DNA of 6,041 bases from a virus. The DNA is taken from the IMG/VR virus record IMGVR_UViG_3300045988_001127, positions 1-6,041 of that record; one strand, 5' to 3'. A program made the position numbers and the translations under genes. Each line of letters starts with the position of its first letter. Position 1 is the first letter of the stretch. Positions 1-6,041 of this stretch are shown here, in pieces. The notes beneath the pieces are model-generated. The model ran no database searches, was not told where the DNA came from, and worked only from the letters and a program-made list of their open reading frames with translations.

Positions 1-77
1 AGCCAAATGTTTCTCCCATTGAGAATTGCTGTAAAAATCAAAATAGATTTTCTGATAAGCAAGGAACGGAAGAGCAT
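1..77. repeat. Terminal direct repeat, copy 1 (identical to 5965..6041); overlap of a circular genome
   Basis: Base-by-base comparison: agccaaatgtttctcccattgagaattgctgtaaaaatcaaaatagattttctgataagcaaggaacggaagagcat occurs at 1..77 and at 5965..6041 with no mismatch. The capsid reading frame stays in phase across the join. Confidence 0.97.
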
Positions 78-669
78 TGACAATCTGTGAATTCTGATAA
101 ACCAAAGGATTATCCGCGTCACCAAGACTATCAACGCCTAAATACTTTTTCGTAATAGCAGCCTTTGCAGGATTAGAAGACGCAATCAAAGAACCATAAC
201 CAAGCAAATCAAGCAACTTGCAAGAACCATAAACAATAGGAAGACCTGCATCATCACGAGTATTAGACTGGTCACCAGCATTAGCTGTCTGAAGAAACTG
301 ATTAAAAGTACTCAGAGAAACATTAGGCACAGAAGTAAGTGCAGAGGTATTCGCAGTAGGACTAGCTGCACTAGTCATGTAATCCGTCATTTGAGTAAAT
401 GCCTGCGGGAGCGCGCGGGAAATCAAACGTAAAGGCACAGCGTAGAAATCATAATACTCTTTAATACGGGTATATGCAGCCGTATTAACCGGAACAGTGC
501 GGGTAAACCAGTCAGAGGAAATACGATACTTAGTATCAGGGATGGCAATCTGCCAATAACAAGGTAAAATTTCTCCAACTTTCGCTGTAAACAATTTTTT
601 ACTAGACAAGTCAAAGGAAGAGCGATGAGTAGGAATTTTCGCTCGGTCTAAGGGGTTAAAATCACTCAT
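1..669 (-). CDS. VP1: Major capsid protein VP1/F, N-terminal 223 codons (continues circularly at 5964)
   Basis: ATG at 669..667. I checked all 223 minus-strand triplets down to base 1 and found no stop. The ORF is absent from the track because it has no stop inside the window. Translation starts MSDFNPLDRAKIPTHRSSFDLSSKKLFTAKVGEILPCYWQIAIPDTKYRI, which fits the conserved Microviridae capsid N-terminus (FDLS ... G.L.P ... P.D). Codon 3..1 is in phase with codon 5967..5965. Third positions are T-rich. Confidence 0.93.
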   Translation of the reverse strand, partial: MSDFNPLDRAKIPTHRSSFDLSSKKLFTAKVGEILPCYWQIAIPDTKYRISSDWFTRTVPVNTAAYTRIKEYYDFYAVPLRLISRALPQAFTQMTDYMTSAASPTANTSALTSVPNVSLSTFNQFLQTANAGDQSNTRDDAGLPIVYGSCKLLDLLGYGSLIASSNPAKAAITKKYLGVDSLGDADNPLVYQNSQIVNALPFLAYQKIYFDFYSNSQWEKHLA

Positions 670-686
670 AATTAATAAAATTAAAA

Positions 687-2366
687 TTAAACCATACGGT
701 TGAAAATATTATTAGCATCATTAAGCTTTTTGTGCTTAATCATGTCACGACAGAATGTTGCACTACGGTACCGGAGTTGCTCAAGAAGCTCAGATGTTTC
801 ACTCGAAACGGTCTGCAAGACATCCATTTCGCACCCGTTCTGAGGGAACGCAAACATACAATCCGAAATATCCGGGTTTTGGGATCGTAAGTTGAATGCA
901 TCTCGTAAACTTTCATAATCTTTTTTCTTTTCATACTCTATGCCTGTTTTAATGATAAACATAATACGACCGGAGTAAGCACTAACATCAGAACCGAAGA
1001 GAGGCAAATGCCAGTTACGGAAGAACTTATAGACATATAAGAATAGCCGATATAGCTTATTAATATAAGATTCGATATCGACATCACTAGAACAGTTAAC
1101 AAACCTAGTAAGACACCGAGAAGCATGTAATATAATCTTGTCATCATCAGTAAGAATAGAATTGACTTTAAGATATTGATAATAAGTGCGGACAAGACTC
1201 AAAATTGAGTCCTGTTTGTAGGCAATAAATCCGAATTTTGCAATTCTCTTTGGCGTTGAGTGTACAGCGCGAAGAATTCGAGCAATCGCAATACTATCGT
1301 CATTGCGAGTAGACGAGAATCTGGGCAATAAGGTACGGATATACGACATGGGTGGAGTTGACCGAATACTGAGGCCGTTGAAGTTATGGATTCTTCCATT
1401 AACGACAGAATCGATTTTTTGCTCAATCTGCGCATAAGGGTCTTCACCTTCCACGAAATCGCAACCTTTCTCAAAGAATCCCAAAGACGCTCTCGAGCGG
1501 GGTTTAAACGCGCGGCATGAGCGATATAATAAGGGAGCAGAACTAAGGCTATTAACGTAACTCGCAATGTACGAAGAAGCTCCACCTCTGGCAATCTGGA
1601 AATCTGAACGACCGAACTTCCAACTCTTATCGTGACAGTATCGTAATACCTTTGAGACTTCTTCCGAGTTCGTGAATAATAAGATATGGTAATGCGGGCG
1701 GAAATGCACAGGGCCGTACTCACCAACAGCGTAGAAATGTAGCGTTTCATATTTTCCTAGTTGTTGAAATAAATATTTACGTAATCTTTTAATATAATTC
1801 TGAACATCAACATAGTTTAAAAAGGGAATAAGGTTATCACGACCGTATTGTTCAGAAGCGGGATAATCCGTTTTGTCAACCGATTGCGTCTTATAGATAA
1901 AACTACGAATAGCAGCCATACTAAGAAACCAATTGTCCTTAACAGGAACATATTCCTTAATCTCACGGTCAAACGGCACTGTACCTTGTACCTGTTCGAA
2001 GAATATATGACGCAGCATGGAGTCATCATCACATCGATACTCGGAAACAGGAATATATTTATGATATTCATCACCAAAATGAATATCTCCTGAGATACCT
2101 ACAACGTCCTCATATTCACTGTGGAGAACCTTACAATTCATAAGAGGAATATGTTCGTTGTCATACGTAAGAGTTACAAAATAAGAATACTTAAAAGCAC
2201 TTCCAGCGGTCTTCACACGCATGGACGCTTTCTGAGCACGCTTATGGATGCAATAATCGCATTGACCACAATCCACGGCAATACGTGCACCGTTATAACG
2301 ATTAGTAATAAACGAACGATGCTGGCAATGATCAGCCGCTTTCAGTAAATCAGGAGAAAATTTCAT
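687..2366 (-). CDS. VP4: Rolling-circle replication initiator (HUH endonuclease, Microviridae VP4 / phiX174 gpA-like), 559 aa
   Basis: ATG 2366..2364, TAA 689..687. N-terminal CGQCDYC (C33/C36/C39) resembles the CGxCxxC of Microviridae VP4. Motif I is FVTLTYD (aa 63-69). The HUH motif is HYHILLF, with HYH encoded at 1694..1686. The double-tyrosine motif is YIASYVNS (Y266 at 1571..1569, Y270 at 1559..1557), comparable to phiX174 gpA YVAKYVNK. Confidence 0.93.
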   Translation of the reverse strand: MKFSPDLLKAADHCQHRSFITNRYNGARIAVDCGQCDYCIHKRAQKASMRVKTAGSAFKYSYFVTLTYDNEHIPLMNCKVLHSEYEDVVGISGDIHFGDEYHKYIPVSEYRCDDDSMLRHIFFEQVQGTVPFDREIKEYVPVKDNWFLSMAAIRSFIYKTQSVDKTDYPASEQYGRDNLIPFLNYVDVQNYIKRLRKYLFQQLGKYETLHFYAVGEYGPVHFRPHYHILLFTNSEEVSKVLRYCHDKSWKFGRSDFQIARGGASSYIASYVNSLSSAPLLYRSCRAFKPRSRASLGFFEKGCDFVEGEDPYAQIEQKIDSVVNGRIHNFNGLSIRSTPPMSYIRTLLPRFSSTRNDDSIAIARILRAVHSTPKRIAKFGFIAYKQDSILSLVRTYYQYLKVNSILTDDDKIILHASRCLTRFVNCSSDVDIESYINKLYRLFLYVYKFFRNWHLPLFGSDVSAYSGRIMFIIKTGIEYEKKKDYESLRDAFNLRSQNPDISDCMFAFPQNGCEMDVLQTVSSETSELLEQLRYRSATFCRDMIKHKKLNDANNIFNRMV

Positions 2367-2368
2367 AA

Positions 2369-2677
2369 TTATTTACGTTTGTCTATCACCTGCCGACGAT
2401 TACGAGAGCAGAATGAAATATGAATAAATGTCGGATATATAATAAGCTGGTCGAATGGCGAAACATTATCAGAGAAAAAATGAATCGTTTCGAGCAAATT
2501 ATTAAATGTAGTAGAACCATAAGGTTTAATATCAACAGCCTCGCCTACAAGATGTTGGGAATTCGGAACACCTCCAGCAGCTTTATTCTGTTCAGGAGTA
2601 CGTCTAGCACTAGTCACCGAAAAATGAACATTAGAGTAAAGCAGATACTCAAAAAAATGCATAAGAGTATAATTCAT
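2369..2677 (-). CDS. Peptidase M15-family (LAS-type Zn D-Ala-D-Ala carboxypeptidase/endopeptidase-like) cell-wall hydrolase, 102 aa; candidate endolysin
   Basis: ATG 2677..2675, TAA 2371..2369. SARRTPEQNKAAGGVPNSQHLVGEAVDI ... IYPTFIHISF matches the M15_3/M15_4 signature (SGYR..N...GG...S.H..G.A.D ... H). The putative Zn ligands are H42 (2554..2552), D49 (2533..2531) and H86 (2422..2420). Third positions are T-rich. I see no signal peptide. Confidence 0.85.
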   Translation of the reverse strand: MNYTLMHFFEYLLYSNVHFSVTSARRTPEQNKAAGGVPNSQHLVGEAVDIKPYGSTTFNNLLETIHFFSDNVSPFDQLIIYPTFIHISFCSRNRRQVIDKRK

Positions 2678-2757
2678 AGTCCGATAGCATTAAGAATATA
2701 ACCAAGAGCAGCGGAAACAGCTCCAATTACAATTTTCCAAATATTATTGCTTTTCAT
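2674..2757 (-). CDS. 27-aa single-pass membrane peptide MKSNNIWKIVIGAVSAALGYILNAIGL; candidate holin-like partner of the peptidase
   Basis: This is the internal ATG (2757..2755) of the 74-aa track ORF. Only this part lies outside the 65-aa gene. 16 of its 27 codons end in T, the genome's coding signature. It has a polar N-terminus followed by about 22 hydrophobic residues. Its TGA (2676..2674) overlaps the peptidase ATG (2677..2675) as ATGA. Confidence 0.55.
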   Translation of the reverse strand: MKSNNIWKIVIGAVSAALGYILNAIGL

Positions 2758-2941
2758 TGTTTTGAGTTTTAAGTTCGATAAAACTATTAAATTCTTGAAT
2801 CGAATCCACAATAACAATAAGACCCAACGAAGAAACTCGCTCAGAATAATTTCCAAGACCATCGAGAGAATCGATAACATAAGGCGAAATAACATCACGA
2901 CCAGTGGTTTTGTCTTTAACTGAAATAATAAACTTTAGCAT
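2744..2941 (-). CDS. Hypothetical 65-aa acidic protein, first gene after the promoter (TTG start)
   Basis: 37 of 65 codons end in T, matching the genuine genes. The composition looks globular. The track's M is a TTG (2941..2939). The frame opens after TAA 2956..2954 and contains no ATG or GTG, so the start is uncertain. Confidence 0.55.
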   Translation of the reverse strand: MLKFIISVKDKTTGRDVISPYVIDSLDGLGNYSERVSSLGLIVIVDSIQEFNSFIELKTQNNEKQ

Positions 2942-2990
2942 AATTGTAAGAATTTTAAAATATTAATAATAGTTGTAACTCCTAACTGGG

Positions 2991-3021
2991 GCAAATATAC
3001 AAACTATTTTAATAATTCCAA
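2991..3021 (-). promoter_or_regulatory. Bacteroidota-type sigma-A promoter: -33 TTTG (3021..3018), 19-nt spacer, -7 TATATTTG (2998..2991)
   Basis: The minus strand reads TTTG-gaattattaaaatagtttg-TATATTTG, matching the Bacteroides consensus TTTG-N19-21-TAnnTTTG. It sits in the only long AT-rich noncoding stretch, about 50 nt upstream of the first gene, and is preceded by an A9 tract (3039..3031). Confidence 0.5.
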
Positions 3022-3112
3022 AAGAAATATCTTTTTTTTTAGATTGTACCATAGAGTGTGAGTTGTGCGTTTATGGACAAGGGATGGAGAATTCGAGAGG
3101 ATAACTCGAATT

Positions 3113-3139
3113 TGCTTTCGCACACAACTAGGGGCTTCG
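3113..3139 (-). other. Two DNA mini-hairpin motifs on the sense strand: GCGAAAGC (3120..3113) and GCGAAGC (3139..3133)
   Basis: Plus-strand gctttcgc at 3113..3120 and gcttcgc at 3133..3139 are the reverse complements of GCGAAAGC and GCGAAGC. Both therefore lie on the strand predicted to be packaged as ssDNA. Confidence 0.6.
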
Positions 3140-3216
3140 CTTAATTGACAAGTGAGTGTATACAGGGGTATATAGGCACGGCAGGTCAGATAGAACCTGC
3201 CTTTGCGCACTCCGTG

Positions 3217-3262
3217 CTAAAATACCGGAGCGGAACGCTCCTATAAGGAAGTCGCTCCGCTC
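3217..3262 (-). terminator. Candidate intrinsic terminator after the last gene (VP2)
   Basis: The sense strand reads GGAGCGGAGCG-(15-nt loop)-CGTTCCGCTCC: 11 pairs, 10 Watson-Crick plus 1 G-T wobble. It is followed by GGTATTTTA (3225..3217). The T-tract is short and interrupted, so this is weak as a classical terminator. Confidence 0.35.
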
Positions 3263-3344
3263 CATATTTCGATCAGGCCCTACGCGGGCGGCGGGTGTAT
3301 ATCGCTCAAACGCCGCGATAGGCTTCTAGTCCTGAAGTATGTTC

Positions 3345-4448
3345 TTATTTACGGCCAAAGTTACCAAAACGAGCACCGGCGCCAACAAAATTACCAGCAC
3401 CGGAGGCAATACTACCAACACCACGAGCAACAGATTCCCAATAATGAGTACGGCCTTGTTTACGAGCCAAGTCTGCGCCATATTCAGCAGCTTTCTGATT
3501 CGCCATAGAAGTTTTATACTCCGTATGTTTACGAAGCTTAACATTCTTATAATCATACGTACTATCACGATATTGCAATTCATTAGAGGCATTAGCTGCC
3601 TTAATCAAAGAATCAGCCGTCTCGGAAGCTACACGATTGTCAATTTTCTTACCGGAAGCCTCAGCAGAAGCAAGAATAGCACGCTGAATTTCAGTCTGTA
3701 TTTGCTTCTCAGTAAGAGCACCTTGAGACTGGAGATTGGCTAAAGTTTGAGCCTTAATAAACAAATCAGCCTGTTGATTCTGGTCCATATACTTATTCAT
3801 AATACGTTGAGCATCAGAATTAAGCAAAATCTGTGCTTCTTGAGCAGCAGATATACGTTCAGCAAACTGGGCGTTTTTTAAATTCTGAGCCTCGGTAGAT
3901 TGGTCCAAAGCAGCAGACACACGGCCTGTTTCCTTGTTCCAATAACCGGAAGAGCCAATAGCTAGATTCTTCCAGTTAGTAAGACCTCTATAATAATCAG
4001 ACAAAAGAGGAGTTACCGTATCAGTCTGACGCGCACGAGAGCCTGATTCACCAGCAGAAGCCTCAGAAGCCTTAGCTTGAGCAAGGGAAGCAAGAGACTG
4101 AAACACGCTAGAAAAATTAGGCTTATAGGCCTGCATACTAGGAACAGGAGCAGCAGTAGCAGCAGCTCCGCCTGAAGCAGGAGACCTAGAACCAGCCATA
4201 GCAGCAGAACCTTGAACAAACGGATTCAAACCACGAGAAATCATAGCGTCAGGAGAATTGTAGGCATTATTCATGCCCCACATCTGTTGCTGCCAATCAC
4301 GTTGAATCTGAGCCTGCTCTGCGTTAAAAGCGTTCTGCTCACGCATCATACGGAGATTAACCTTATTCTGATGATTCTGATTAACCATACCGACAACATT
4401 GTCGGTAAGGTTTGCAGCCGAGGAAGCTATAGCATCAAATAGGCCCAT
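3345..4448 (-). CDS. VP2: Minor capsid / DNA pilot protein (VP2, gpH-like), 367 aa
   Basis: ATG 4448..4446, TAA 3347..3345. The N-terminal region NAFNAEQAQIQRDWQQQMWGMNNAYNSPDAMISRGLNPFV fits the conserved VP2 pattern (Q..W...M.N.AY..P.....AGLNP). The central part is Ala/Ser/Gln-rich and coiled-coil-like, and the tail is Gly-rich. It follows the capsid gene, as expected. Confidence 0.88.
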   Translation of the reverse strand: MGLFDAIASSAANLTDNVVGMVNQNHQNKVNLRMMREQNAFNAEQAQIQRDWQQQMWGMNNAYNSPDAMISRGLNPFVQGSAAMAGSRSPASGGAAATAAPVPSMQAYKPNFSSVFQSLASLAQAKASEASAGESGSRARQTDTVTPLLSDYYRGLTNWKNLAIGSSGYWNKETGRVSAALDQSTEAQNLKNAQFAERISAAQEAQILLNSDAQRIMNKYMDQNQQADLFIKAQTLANLQSQGALTEKQIQTEIQRAILASAEASGKKIDNRVASETADSLIKAANASNELQYRDSTYDYKNVKLRKHTEYKTSMANQKAAEYGADLARKQGRTHYWESVARGVGSIASGAGNFVGAGARFGNFGRK

Positions 4449-4888
4449 TATTCAGGAGAGGCAGGGGCGGGATCCGAAGACGGCGCTGCCTTTTGCTCTG
4501 CCAACATAGATTCGGCATAAGCCGATAGTTCAGACTTCTCACTGGCCAACTGCTGTAAAACAGCCTGACGTTCAGACATAGTTTGACAATGACGGGAGAT
4601 AACACAATCAAAACGTTCTTCATCAGTCATACCATCCATTATAGTAGACTGAGTAGGATGCATTTGGGCAAGAATATTCTGAACATTCATATCACCAAGT
4701 AACCGGCGATATTTTTCCTGATTCAGCAAAATCTGCGTCATATCACATTGAATCAAGTCACCATCAGGAGATTCATCATACATAACTGTATCATATACAG
4801 ACTGCTGATAACACGGATTATCCTCAATCAACTCGGGAACAACCTCATTTTTAATATAATCGGGGTTTTTATAAGCAAAACTTCTCAT
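4448..4888 (-). CDS. Hypothetical acidic 146-aa protein between VP1 and VP2 (position compatible with an internal scaffolding VP3-like protein)
   Basis: ATG 4888..4886. The TAA stop (4450..4448) overlaps the VP2 ATG by one base (TAATG). Third positions are T-rich. I recognise no motif, so the function is inferred from position only. Confidence 0.75.
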   Translation of the reverse strand: MRSFAYKNPDYIKNEVVPELIEDNPCYQQSVYDTVMYDESPDGDLIQCDMTQILLNQEKYRRLLGDMNVQNILAQMHPTQSTIMDGMTDEERFDCVISRHCQTMSERQAVLQQLASEKSELSAYAESMLAEQKAAPSSDPAPASPE

Positions 4889-4899
4889 AACAATACAAA

Positions 4900-6041
4900 T
4901 TAATAAGGTAAACCATTTCTATCCAAGTTCTGTACAGCATATACTTGGAAATTAACATTACAGAGCAACTGGTCAAACGCAACAGAACAGTTCGCAGCAT
5001 CAATTTGAGGAACGAATATAGAATTCAGCTGTTGAGGACGAACTTTCATAGACTGGTAAGACCAAGCACCGGAAGAGGTTAACACCTGCCATCCATCAAG
5101 AGGAGCAGACCAAGACTGATAAGCAGCACCAGCACGGAATCCAGCGTGAACGGTATCAATATTAGATTTCCATTGCCAATAACGGAGGTTATAACCAAGA
5201 GAACCGGAAACATTACGGCCGGGGTTATTCTGAAGATTCAGAGCAGGAACAGCTTGCATACCAAGCTGGTCAAATGCAGGTTGCGGGAAGTCAGAGATAG
5301 CGGTCACAGTCAATTGAGGAGCCTGACCAGTCAAATTCCAATCCAACATGGGGACAGCATGGTATACACACATAATCACCTGATGTTCAGCGCCACAGTC
5401 ATAAGTAATAGTATGTCCGGAATTACTGGATACACCTTTACCAGCAATAGAAGCCTGAGAAGAGTCAGAATCAAGATTAGTATTAACTACCTCATTAATG
5501 TTGATAACACTGGACCAACCTCCAATATAATGAGCATGATTACCCATGTATTCGGGAGCCTTAATACCAAATTGAGCGGCCATTTGGTCAGAGTAGTCTT
5601 TGCTAGAGAATTGTACTACTTCTTTCCAGCGCTGGAGATATTCTGTGGCACGAATTGAGAGAGCGGAAAGATCGGAATTAAGAGAAACAGGATAATTAGA
5701 ACCGGTACCAGCAGAACTGAGGGCAACAGTCGTACCTGAAGTATTAACAAGGACAGAAGCGGTACCAGCAGCATTAGGAGCAACAAGATAAGATGAAGCA
5801 TGAGAAGAAAATTTAGAAGGTAATACAGCTACCGAACCATATTGAGAAGATGGCAACATACCCATAAAGTAATCTTTCGGGTAGTTTGCATAGCGAAGTT
5901 TAACCATTTCCGTAACCAGTGAGATCTGACCGGTACCAGACCAATAATCAACATTATAAGAATAAGCCAAATGTTTCTCCCATTGAGAATTGCTGTAAAA
6001 ATCAAAATAGATTTTCTGATAAGCAAGGAACGGAAGAGCAT
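4900..6041 (-). CDS. VP1: Major capsid protein VP1/F, C-terminal part (354 unique codons, 5964..4903, plus stop; 5965..6041 duplicates 1..77)
   Basis: TAA at 4902..4900. The track's M at 5970 is an internal TTG (Leu). The frame stays open to the window end and reads ...QWEKHLAYSYNVDYW across the 1/5964 junction. Joined length is 577 aa. Confidence 0.93.
   Translation of the reverse strand, partial: ALPFLAYQKIYFDFYSNSQWEKHLAYSYNVDYWSGTGQISLVTEMVKLRYANYPKDYFMGMLPSSQYGSVAVLPSKFSSHASSYLVAPNAAGTASVLVNTSGTTVALSSAGTGSNYPVSLNSDLSALSIRATEYLQRWKEVVQFSSKDYSDQMAAQFGIKAPEYMGNHAHYIGGWSSVININEVVNTNLDSDSSQASIAGKGVSSNSGHTITYDCGAEHQVIMCVYHAVPMLDWNLTGQAPQLTVTAISDFPQPAFDQLGMQAVPALNLQNNPGRNVSGSLGYNLRYWQWKSNIDTVHAGFRAGAAYQSWSAPLDGWQVLTSSGAWSYQSMKVRPQQLNSIFVPQIDAANCSVAFDQLLCNVNFQVYAVQNLDRNGLPY
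5965..6041. repeat. Terminal direct repeat, copy 2 (identical to 1..77)
   Basis: See copy 1: 77 of 77 identical. Confidence 0.97.

Follow-up and report, generated by a model that had tools for sequence, protein, structure and literature searches.

A selected 27-residue membrane peptide gene beside a truncated M15_3 peptidase in a proposed lysis region of gut microviruses

The lysis protein E of phage phiX174 has 91 residues and targets MraY, and the pinholin S21 of phage 21 (68/71 residues) has a dual start. TisB (29 residues) and the Hok-family type I toxins combine a short polar head with a terminal helix, insert post-translationally and depolarise the membrane. The 37-residue LysM of phage M targets MurJ (PMC12506998), and the 75-residue L of MS2 is lesion-forming (PMC10688784). 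In gut microviruses, Roux et al. (2012) described M15_3 peptidases of Alpavirinae and Gokushovirinae and proposed that they were acquired horizontally and act as a probable endolysin (PMC3394797); Kirchberger et al. (2022) listed peptidases among the lysis-associated accessory genes, left overprinted genes out, and found that microvirus accessory genes cluster in the interval between VP2 and VP4 (PMC9239249). Here we analyse a locus of this kind in a microvirus from the IMG/VR record IMGVR_UViG_3300045988_001127, positions 1 to 6,041, the whole of which (6,041 nt) is called the window below. Its minus strand carries all genes of the virus, among them an open reading frame (ORF) of 27 codons with one hydrophobic helix, directly followed by a 102-residue M15_3 peptidase gene (Table 1). 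A sequence-only reading of the window had proposed the two as a holin(-like)/endolysin pair. The enzyme belongs to the same family (PF08291) as the published ones, which likewise come from gut microviruses (of human and animals) and have Bacteroidetes as closest cellular relatives; the locus differs in that the earlier studies describe the enzyme only, mentioning no membrane partner, and that the enzyme is here a truncated form (PMC3394797, PMC9239249).

The 27-codon mini-ORF is a real, selected gene. The frequency of T at its third codon positions is 0.59, compared with 0.45–0.58 in the other genes, and with third positions this T-rich (0.45–0.59) most genes have a +1 frame with long open stretches that would encode very hydrophobic products (for example 938–1195, 4013–4219 and 5616–5801, minus strand). 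Because hydrophobic alternative-frame ORFs are common in such a genome, we did not take openness or hydrophobicity alone as evidence of a membrane gene and accepted for alternative-frame coding only codon-position tests and ratios of nonsynonymous to synonymous change (dN/dS) with control frames. Over 84 unique nucleotide versions of the peptide gene, the entropies of codon positions 1, 2 and 3 were 0.28, 0.02 and 0.86; the codons of Ser15 switch between AGY and TCN, and leucine codons between CTN and TTR. The dN/dS was 0.085 in frame compared with 1.2 and 7.3 in the other two frames, and at 0.21 for the peptidase in the same genomes the peptide is under stronger purifying selection than the enzyme beside it. 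In the lineage of this genome (clade A), the mini-ORF is in frame in every locus examined (>100 genomes), and residues G12, A13, S15–G19, Y20, N23 and G26 are invariant. The sequence-only reading had described a hydrophobic helix, an ATGA overlap with the peptidase and the third-position T signature of the genome, all of which are present, and the comparison among relatives that it suggested came out in favour of a gene, with position, frame and hydrophobicity kept and synonymous variation present. None of 35 GenBank records gives the peptide a coding-sequence annotation of its own. One locus (L055) considered as a disrupted mini-ORF was rejected as such: the ORF is intact and is followed by a 33-nt duplication of the junction (328–470), which adds a second 10-codon copy of the peptide end and a second ATGA.

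The peptide has a basic head (net charge +2 over the first nine residues) and a helix at residues 9–27 with a Kyte–Doolittle mean of 2.0. Searches of Pfam gave no match, and the best PHROG matches were not significant (E = 0.47 for a family of unknown function and E = 0.13 for a holin family, the latter with the peptide of clade B described below). A tblastn search with the 27-mer matched only these microviruses, and Pfam and PHROGs showed no homology to E, L, LysM or any other single-gene lysis (Sgl) protein. In size and architecture the peptide is the same as TisB and the Hok-family toxins; those, however, are chromosomal or plasmid stress or addiction modules rather than phage lysis genes, and there is no homology.

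The product of the downstream gene matched Pfam Peptidase_M15_3 (PF08291) with E = 2.2e-9 and 37.8 bits against a cutoff of 23.2, spanning only model positions 43–94 of 108, and PHROG 894, annotated as endolysin, with E = 7.9e-15. A phmmer search against PDB sequences found nothing, and only profile and fold searches gave matches. The segment S40-Q-H42-L-V-G45-E-A47-V-D49 is the SxHxxGxAxD motif, invariant across 12 relatives, which supplies the first His and the Asp of the zinc site; the family profile aligns it to SKHITGDAID of the T5 L-alanyl-D-glutamate peptidase (2mxz) and to NSRHMYGHAAD of 1lbu. The H/D/H residues named by the sequence-only reading are at the positions it gave, and none of H42, D49 and H86 varies among 12 relatives with identities as low as 44%; the M15 assignment and the first two zinc ligands hold. 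In the AlphaFold2 (AF2) model (predicted local distance difference test score 92.6), H86 lies on the strand 85–88, and it is kept as F-[IL]-H-I-S in clade C; no acidic residue stands 2–3 positions before it, and D76 is invariant. The top PDB match of the model in Foldseek was 1lbu, the Zn DD-peptidase of Streptomyces (probability 1.00, template-modelling (TM) score 0.55, root-mean-square deviation 2.4 over 80 columns), with VanY, VanXY, LdcB and the N-domain of Sonic hedgehog (ShhN) among the later matches, and the model has the LAS core fold. The zinc motif and core fold are those of the T5 enzyme, Ply500 of Listeria phage A500 and VanY/1lbu; unlike the M15/LAS endolysins, the peptidase has no cell-wall-binding domain, and the similarity is weak, with E = 3.7e-4 in the profile search and the TM score given above. 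As the sequence-only reading had it, the protein apparently has no signal peptide, its N-terminus containing no hydrophobic core (best 15-mer Kyte–Doolittle mean 0.62). We take it to be the probable endolysin.

That reading had taken M15 ORFs to be sporadic in Microviridae, which our counts contradict: homologues of the peptidase fill 1863 protein clusters and 245 IMG/VR loci, dozens of GenBank microvirus records carry the annotation "peptidase", and such genes were published in 2012 and 2022. The closest cellular relatives (33–49% identity) are nearly all from Bacteroidales, where the gene immediately preceding a homologue often encodes a two-helix membrane protein or an Rz-like, spanin-type protein, the context of a lysis cassette. 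This context and the naming of the PHROG family as endolysin speak against the idea that the peptidase is instead a virion-associated entry enzyme, opening the murein at infection, with the peptide unrelated to it. The enzyme is unusually small, and wall-degrading enzymes are part of the virion in some tailless phages; the small microvirus capsid nevertheless leaves little room for extra cargo, and close relatives whose capsid and pilot proteins are the same do without the peptidase. We regard an entry role as very unlikely.

Two ways of joining peptide and enzyme into one product were rejected. A signal-anchored fusion endolysin is suggested by the 124-residue "peptidase" in the GenBank records of Dulem viruses 238, 226 and 243, but in the peptidase frame the extension is not hydrophobic and is poorly conserved, and the conserved frame across it is that of the peptide. 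In PP511332, PP511396 and PP511322 (loci L006, L007 and L008), the annotated 124-residue "peptidase" or "hypothetical protein" begins 63 nt too early and runs in the wrong frame through the peptide gene. A read-through or frameshift fusion does not fit either, as the junction has no slippery site and spacing and frame vary in clade B.

The peptide is also found without the enzyme. Scanning for the peptide core with a degenerate DNA pattern gave 120 loci, 119 of them with the peptide, and nine complete clade-A genomes have ORF65 (the small gene upstream; Table 1), the peptide (ending ...GYILSAIGV), an AT-rich spacer of ~50 nt and VP4, with no peptidase; tblastn with four peptidase types found nothing in the peptidase-less genomes at E<=1. 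In a neighbour-joining tree of VP4 rooted with clade B, these nine are scattered inside the peptidase-bearing clade A, which argues for loss of the peptidase or exchange of the module and not for ancestral absence. A second lineage, B', consisting of ON840043 (Rattus norvegicus microvirus) and four IMG/VR genomes, has a 32-residue B-like peptide that ends 2–3 nt before the VP4 start, and no peptidase. With at least 14 such genomes, the peptide is the conserved core of the region and not a dedicated helper of the peptidase. Among the clade-A genomes L211–L330, residue 23 is Asn in 110/110 with the peptidase and Ser in 8/9 without it, and a parallel change from Gln26 to Thr27 separates B from B'; given at most two events, this is a hint of covariation with the presence of the enzyme.

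Persistence without the peptidase is what one would also expect if the peptide had a membrane role other than lysis, for example in excluding superinfection, in modulating a transporter or division protein of the host, or in helping assembly or DNA delivery, and stood beside the peptidase owing to a shared insertion site. Many bacterial membrane proteins of 25–50 residues are regulators. Different small ORFs occupy the same slot before VP4 in other peptidase-less viruses, a hydrophobic or amphipathic 31-residue ORF, MKPVWKVVLYVAEALLSAIKAVFGGKDKDSK, in Dulem virus 216/220 (L393, 4356–4451; L394, 4303–4398) and a 65-residue protein with an N-terminal membrane helix in Dulem virus 245 (L395, 4176–4373), and the slot may generally hold membrane-active proteins. 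The clustering of microvirus accessory genes in the VP2–VP4 interval fits this explanation too (PMC9239249). A function outside lysis would, on the other hand, leave these viruses with no lysis gene when the peptidase is absent and with no export route for it when present, and it does not account for the conserved stop/start overlap with the peptidase or for the N23/S23 covariation; we judge it improbable.

Peptide and peptidase are neighbours in at least four lineages and in three gene orders. In clade B, the peptidase (~47–50% identical) is preceded by a peptide of 29 residues, MKSETKSKIWSAIIAAAVSLLTSIAQIFS, with a dN/dS of 0.082; the junction is usually a stop, 3 nt and ATG, with spacing and frame varying at offsets from -3 to -32. 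Two clades of pig microviruses show other arrangements. In clade C, a full-length peptidase is followed by the peptide, MTKEQLNKISNALCALISAVCAALSYFFS, overlapping its 3' end, and by VP4, and in clade D the order is peptidase, small ORF, peptide (MTKEKFNKIVNVVCALISAIGAAISTLLH) and VP4. The peptides of clades A, C and D share a core I-[GS]-A-[VI]-x-A-A-[LI]-[GS], and composition-preserving shuffles reached the observed similarity in 2/5000 cases for A–C, 21/5000 for A–D and 0/5000 for C–D, with a weaker 84/5000 for A–B; this sequence comparison supports a relationship of types A, C and D beyond composition. Their peptidases are mutually only ~38% identical. In every peptide type a short head of basic charge leads into a helix of transmembrane-grade hydrophobicity, ~20 residues long, in which small or polar residues make up about half and the protein ends; in A and B a stripe of small residues is in register with a conserved Trp, and an amide (N23 or Q26) stands at the same offset. 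No related loci were found with the clade-C peptidase as query, none with a degenerate DNA pattern of the clade-C peptide in IMG/VR, and a scan of one metagenome returned 5 unrelated matches; tblastn with the clade-B peptide had no match either, probably owing to the low-complexity filter. In two distant pig microviruses (L378, 4741–5428; L379, 5040–5753), we could reproduce the ~700-nt region of raised identity reported by Kirchberger et al., with 77.9% over 723 nt; it consists of the peptidase and ~300 nt upstream, and of the peptide gene downstream it includes just the first 25 nt.

The variable spacing in clade B also speaks against a further reading, in which the mini-ORF would act as a leader peptide or an upstream ORF whose translation, and not its product, controls the peptidase or VP4 by termination and reinitiation. 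From the ATGA overlap we infer translational coupling to the peptidase, in B' the stop lies 2–3 nt before the VP4 ATG, and overlaps are chained along the whole block, all as a leader would have it. It is the amino acid sequence that is selected, however, as seen in the near-invariant second positions, the switch between serine codon families and the dN/dS of 0.085; the nine peptidase-less clade-A genomes moreover have ~50 nt between peptide and VP4, and in clade B the position and frame relative to the peptidase vary, with offsets from -3 to -32. We consider a leader function highly improbable.

Upstream of the mini-ORF, its reading frame continues open to an ATG at 2895, a fact that the sequence-only reading had omitted, and would encode a form of 73 residues overprinted on ORF65. 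Its layout is a hydrophobic segment at residues 1–31, a basic loop at 32–51 and the 27-mer as a C-terminal helix. The tests with control frames were made on 40 genomes. Synonymous diversity in ORF65 was 0.18, compared with 0.35–0.52 in every window of the peptidase and VP4; dN/dS in its +1 frame was 0.54, compared with 1.03 and 1.45 in control genes, and stops in the +1 frame were present in 0/40 genomes for ORF65 but 40/40 for the peptidase. Third positions in ORF65 vary normally through codon 15 but are almost frozen from codon 16 onward (mean entropy 0.65 vs. 0.30, p = 0.004). The onset of this freeze is a conserved Asp-Val (GAT GTT) that creates the ATG of the +1 frame, invariant in 100/100 genomes, and 98/100 genomes have no stop in the frame of the long form. 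This ORF of 73–74 residues has been called in 224 protein clusters, nearly all hypothetical and a few with evidently spurious automated names. Clade B provides a contrast, as its upstream ORF has normal synonymous diversity, a +1-frame dN/dS of 0.98 and stops in 32/54 genomes, and only 29 residues are possible. These sequence patterns suggest that clade A has an overprinted 73-residue, two-segment long form with an internal Met-Lys start, and we read the 27–32-residue peptide as the ancestral unit, to which clade A would have added an N-terminal extension while keeping the internal Met-Lys. The AF2 model of the long form is a single continuous helix (predicted TM score 0.40), which says nothing on topology. 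ORF65 itself has a dN/dS of 0.37 and no match in Pfam or PHROG. A small ORF that adjoins the peptide in clade D is possibly equivalent, its homology to ORF65 being conjectural, and ORF65-like ORFs of 45–65 residues with a hydrophobic VVLL/IVIVDS-like stretch immediately precede VP4 or the peptide in several lineages, some of them without the peptide (loci L010–L013, L382–L385, L392 and L395).

Our best reading, to which we give a probability of about 0.5, is that the peptide is a membrane-lesion lysis protein, holin-like or L-like, working with an accessory endolysin that has no signal, and we propose the block of ORF65, membrane peptide and M15 peptidase as the lysis region. The peptide would be made as the 27-residue product and, in clade A, probably also as the 73-residue form from the upstream start. 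It would enter the cytoplasmic membrane after translation, with the N-terminus inside and the C-terminus outside, and would self-associate by way of small and polar residues along one face (G12, A16, G19, N23 and G26). Late in infection it would damage or depolarise the membrane, and the lesion would let the ~12-kDa M15_3 peptidase reach the murein and cut peptide stems or cross-links. No other membrane protein or lysin was detected in the genome by the ORF list, Pfam and PHROG, and an enzyme that has no signal and is under selection needs a breach in the membrane, for which the peptide is the sole candidate. In the peptidase-less relatives the peptide must also bring about release without a phage enzyme, and it alone would have to do so, for example through host murein hydrolases.

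The layout is like that of the holin–endolysin cassettes of tailed phages, with a membrane gene directly upstream of a cytoplasmic muralytic enzyme and a start/stop overlap. The peptide adjoins an endolysin gene in clades A, B, C and D, as a holin gene would, though not in the 14 genomes without a peptidase. In clade A the resemblance extends to two-helix class II holins and to the pinholin S21, as the candidate 73-residue long form has two hydrophobic segments and the conserved internal Met-Lys recalls the dual-start motif; no long form exists in clade B. The differences are as marked. The unit common to all lineages has 27–32 residues, compared with about 60–150 in holins, ends inside the helix and has no charged C-terminal tail, and the long form, although holin-like in size, likewise has no such tail. 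Also unlike holins, the peptide shows no sequence or profile similarity to them, stands in variable gene order, persists without an endolysin, is much more highly conserved and belongs to a single-stranded DNA virus. The proposal of a holin/endolysin pair thus holds insofar as the two genes are neighbours in several lineages, and fails insofar as the peptide is not a simple helper; likewise the remark that 27 residues are far below the size of holins stands for clade B, with its 29 residues only, and is weakened for clade A by the long form. The resemblance of the peptide to a holin or an Sgl protein is one of position and architecture only.

Several points weigh against our reading. The mechanism is one that we infer. 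The peptide matches no holin, Sgl or other family in Pfam and PHROG, and it is far more conserved than usual holins, which would also fit the binding of a specific host protein. At least 14 related genomes, nine of clade A and five of B', keep the peptide and have no M15 peptidase. Without an endolysin, a pure holin of an Escherichia coli phage does not lyse, and together with the peptide-only genomes this means that a holin-only role cannot be the whole story. On the side of the enzyme, H86 is put forward as the third zinc ligand on account of its invariance and its position on a strand of the model, and the protein lacks an N-terminal part of ~40 positions of the family model that the 124–150-residue homologues of other microviruses and of Bacteroidales do have. 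Finally, every accessory gene of these viruses is located between VP2 and VP4, and the adjacency of the two genes could thus partly reflect a permissive insertion site (PMC9239249).

The extreme conservation of the helix and the peptide-only genomes lead to the main rival, in which the peptide is a stand-alone "protein antibiotic", a transmembrane helix binding and blocking MraY, MurJ or a similar conserved membrane enzyme that supplies murein precursors, and the peptidase a dispensable add-on that speeds wall breakdown after the first rupture. Such conservation fits a specific protein–protein interface, and the genomes without the enzyme come from two lineages (9 clade A, 5 B') and have no other lysis candidate. 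Like E, LysM and L, the peptide is a very small membrane-helix protein of a minimal single-stranded phage genome, partly overprinted, and the sole candidate for lysis in 14 relatives. There is a precedent in the 37-residue lysis protein targeting MurJ (PMC12506998), and single-gene lysis is the general view for Microviridae (10.1101/2022.01.20.477139). What this rival does not account for is the retained cytoplasmic endolysin. More than 90% of clade A and all clade-B genomes examined carry the enzyme (dN/dS 0.21), and, having no signal, it needs a route through the membrane before lysis, which an inhibitor of precursor synthesis would not give; the repeated juxtaposition of the peptide with different peptidases in different orders suggests joint action. 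By definition a muralytic enzyme is absent from Sgl systems, whereas the peptide usually coexists with one, and it has no similarity to E or any other Sgl protein. We hold an Sgl inhibitor to be unlikely, though a serious contender, and continue to favour a membrane lesion aided by the endolysin.

Table 1. Features of the proposed lysis region and its surroundings in the window.
Feature	Position	Strand	Remarks
VP4 replication initiator	687..2366	-	Next gene; start 2 nt past the peptidase stop
Truncated M15_3 (LAS-fold) zinc peptidase gene, 102 residues	2369..2677	-	Start 2677, end 2369; Pfam, PHROG and fold
ATGA stop/start overlap, peptide ORF/peptidase	2674..2677	-	Kept in nearly all clade-A loci (offset d=4)
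Single-pass membrane peptide ORF, 27 residues, MKSNNIWKIVIGAVSAALGYILNAIGL plus TGA	2674..2757	-	Start 2757; unit conserved in all lineages
Candidate long form, 73 residues	2677..2895	-	In the frame of the peptide, overprinted on ORF65; ATG 2895, GTG one codon upstream at 2898 (73/74 residues)
ORF65, small acidic protein	2744..2941	-	Overlaps the peptide start by its final 14 nt; accompanies the peptide in clades A and B
Bacteroidota-type promoter-like element, TTTG-N19-TATATTTG	2992..3022	-	Ends 50 nt upstream of the ORF65 ATG

The window carries an exact terminal direct repeat of 77 nt (1–77 = 5965–6041). This is the assembly overlap of a circular genome that measures 5964 nt, and the junction lies within the VP1 capsid gene. 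The order on the minus strand is VP1, an ORF of 146 residues that is labelled internal scaffolding protein in the records of relatives, VP2 (the pilot protein), 400 nt of non-coding sequence, ORF65, the 27-residue ORF, the 102-residue peptidase and VP4. Scans of the window for Rfam families and tRNAs gave no matches. A promoter-like pattern TTTG-N17-21-TAnnTTTG is found 48–53 nt before the ORF65 ATG in 62/101 unique relatives and in 0/2020 shuffles, and this element is the probable start of a transcription unit comprising ORF65, peptide, peptidase and VP4. The closest GenBank relatives are faecal microviruses from dog, human, lemurs and rodents; the host of this gut virus is probably a member of Bacteroidales, and a Bacteroidota-type promoter in front of the block supports this. 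A G+C-rich part of the VP2–ORF65 interval (3140–3345, minus strand) folds as single-stranded DNA with -40.6 kcal/mol (z = -4.3, 0/200 shuffles) and contains a perfect hairpin at 3227–3241. The region has no match in Rfam and may be a complementary-strand origin or a terminator; an ORF of 45–51 residues (MERSDFL...) that lies over it recurs in relatives.

The peptidase half of the lysis block is already known, and relative to the annotations and literature searched the new elements are the conserved micro-gene, its linkage to peptidases in several gene orders, its ability to persist without them and the long form overprinted on ORF65. In hundreds of microvirus genomes on deposit, selected genes shorter than 30 codons and overprinted extensions go unnoticed by routine annotation, and some records replace the missed micro-gene by a false N-terminal extension of the peptidase. 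Outside the phiX174 group, microvirus lysis is essentially unexplained, though these phages rank with the most common viruses in the gut of mammals; the enzyme was known before, and the way in which it could cross the membrane was not. The peptide is the best candidate so far for host lysis in these single-stranded DNA phages. A bolder version, which we find possible though doubtful, is that the 27–32-residue family is the missing lysis effector of the abundant, Bacteroidales-associated gut microviruses and the smallest phage lysis protein, able to act alone as a lesion former or as a blocker of a conserved envelope enzyme of Bacteroidales, with M15 peptidases recruited several times and, in one lineage, an overprinted N-terminal extension making it a dual-start protein of holin size. 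The micro-gene makes the question of lysis directly testable, as a synthetic gene of 81 nt suffices, and, should the peptide act by itself, it would count as a new minimal lysis protein and might point to a vulnerable target in the Bacteroidales envelope.

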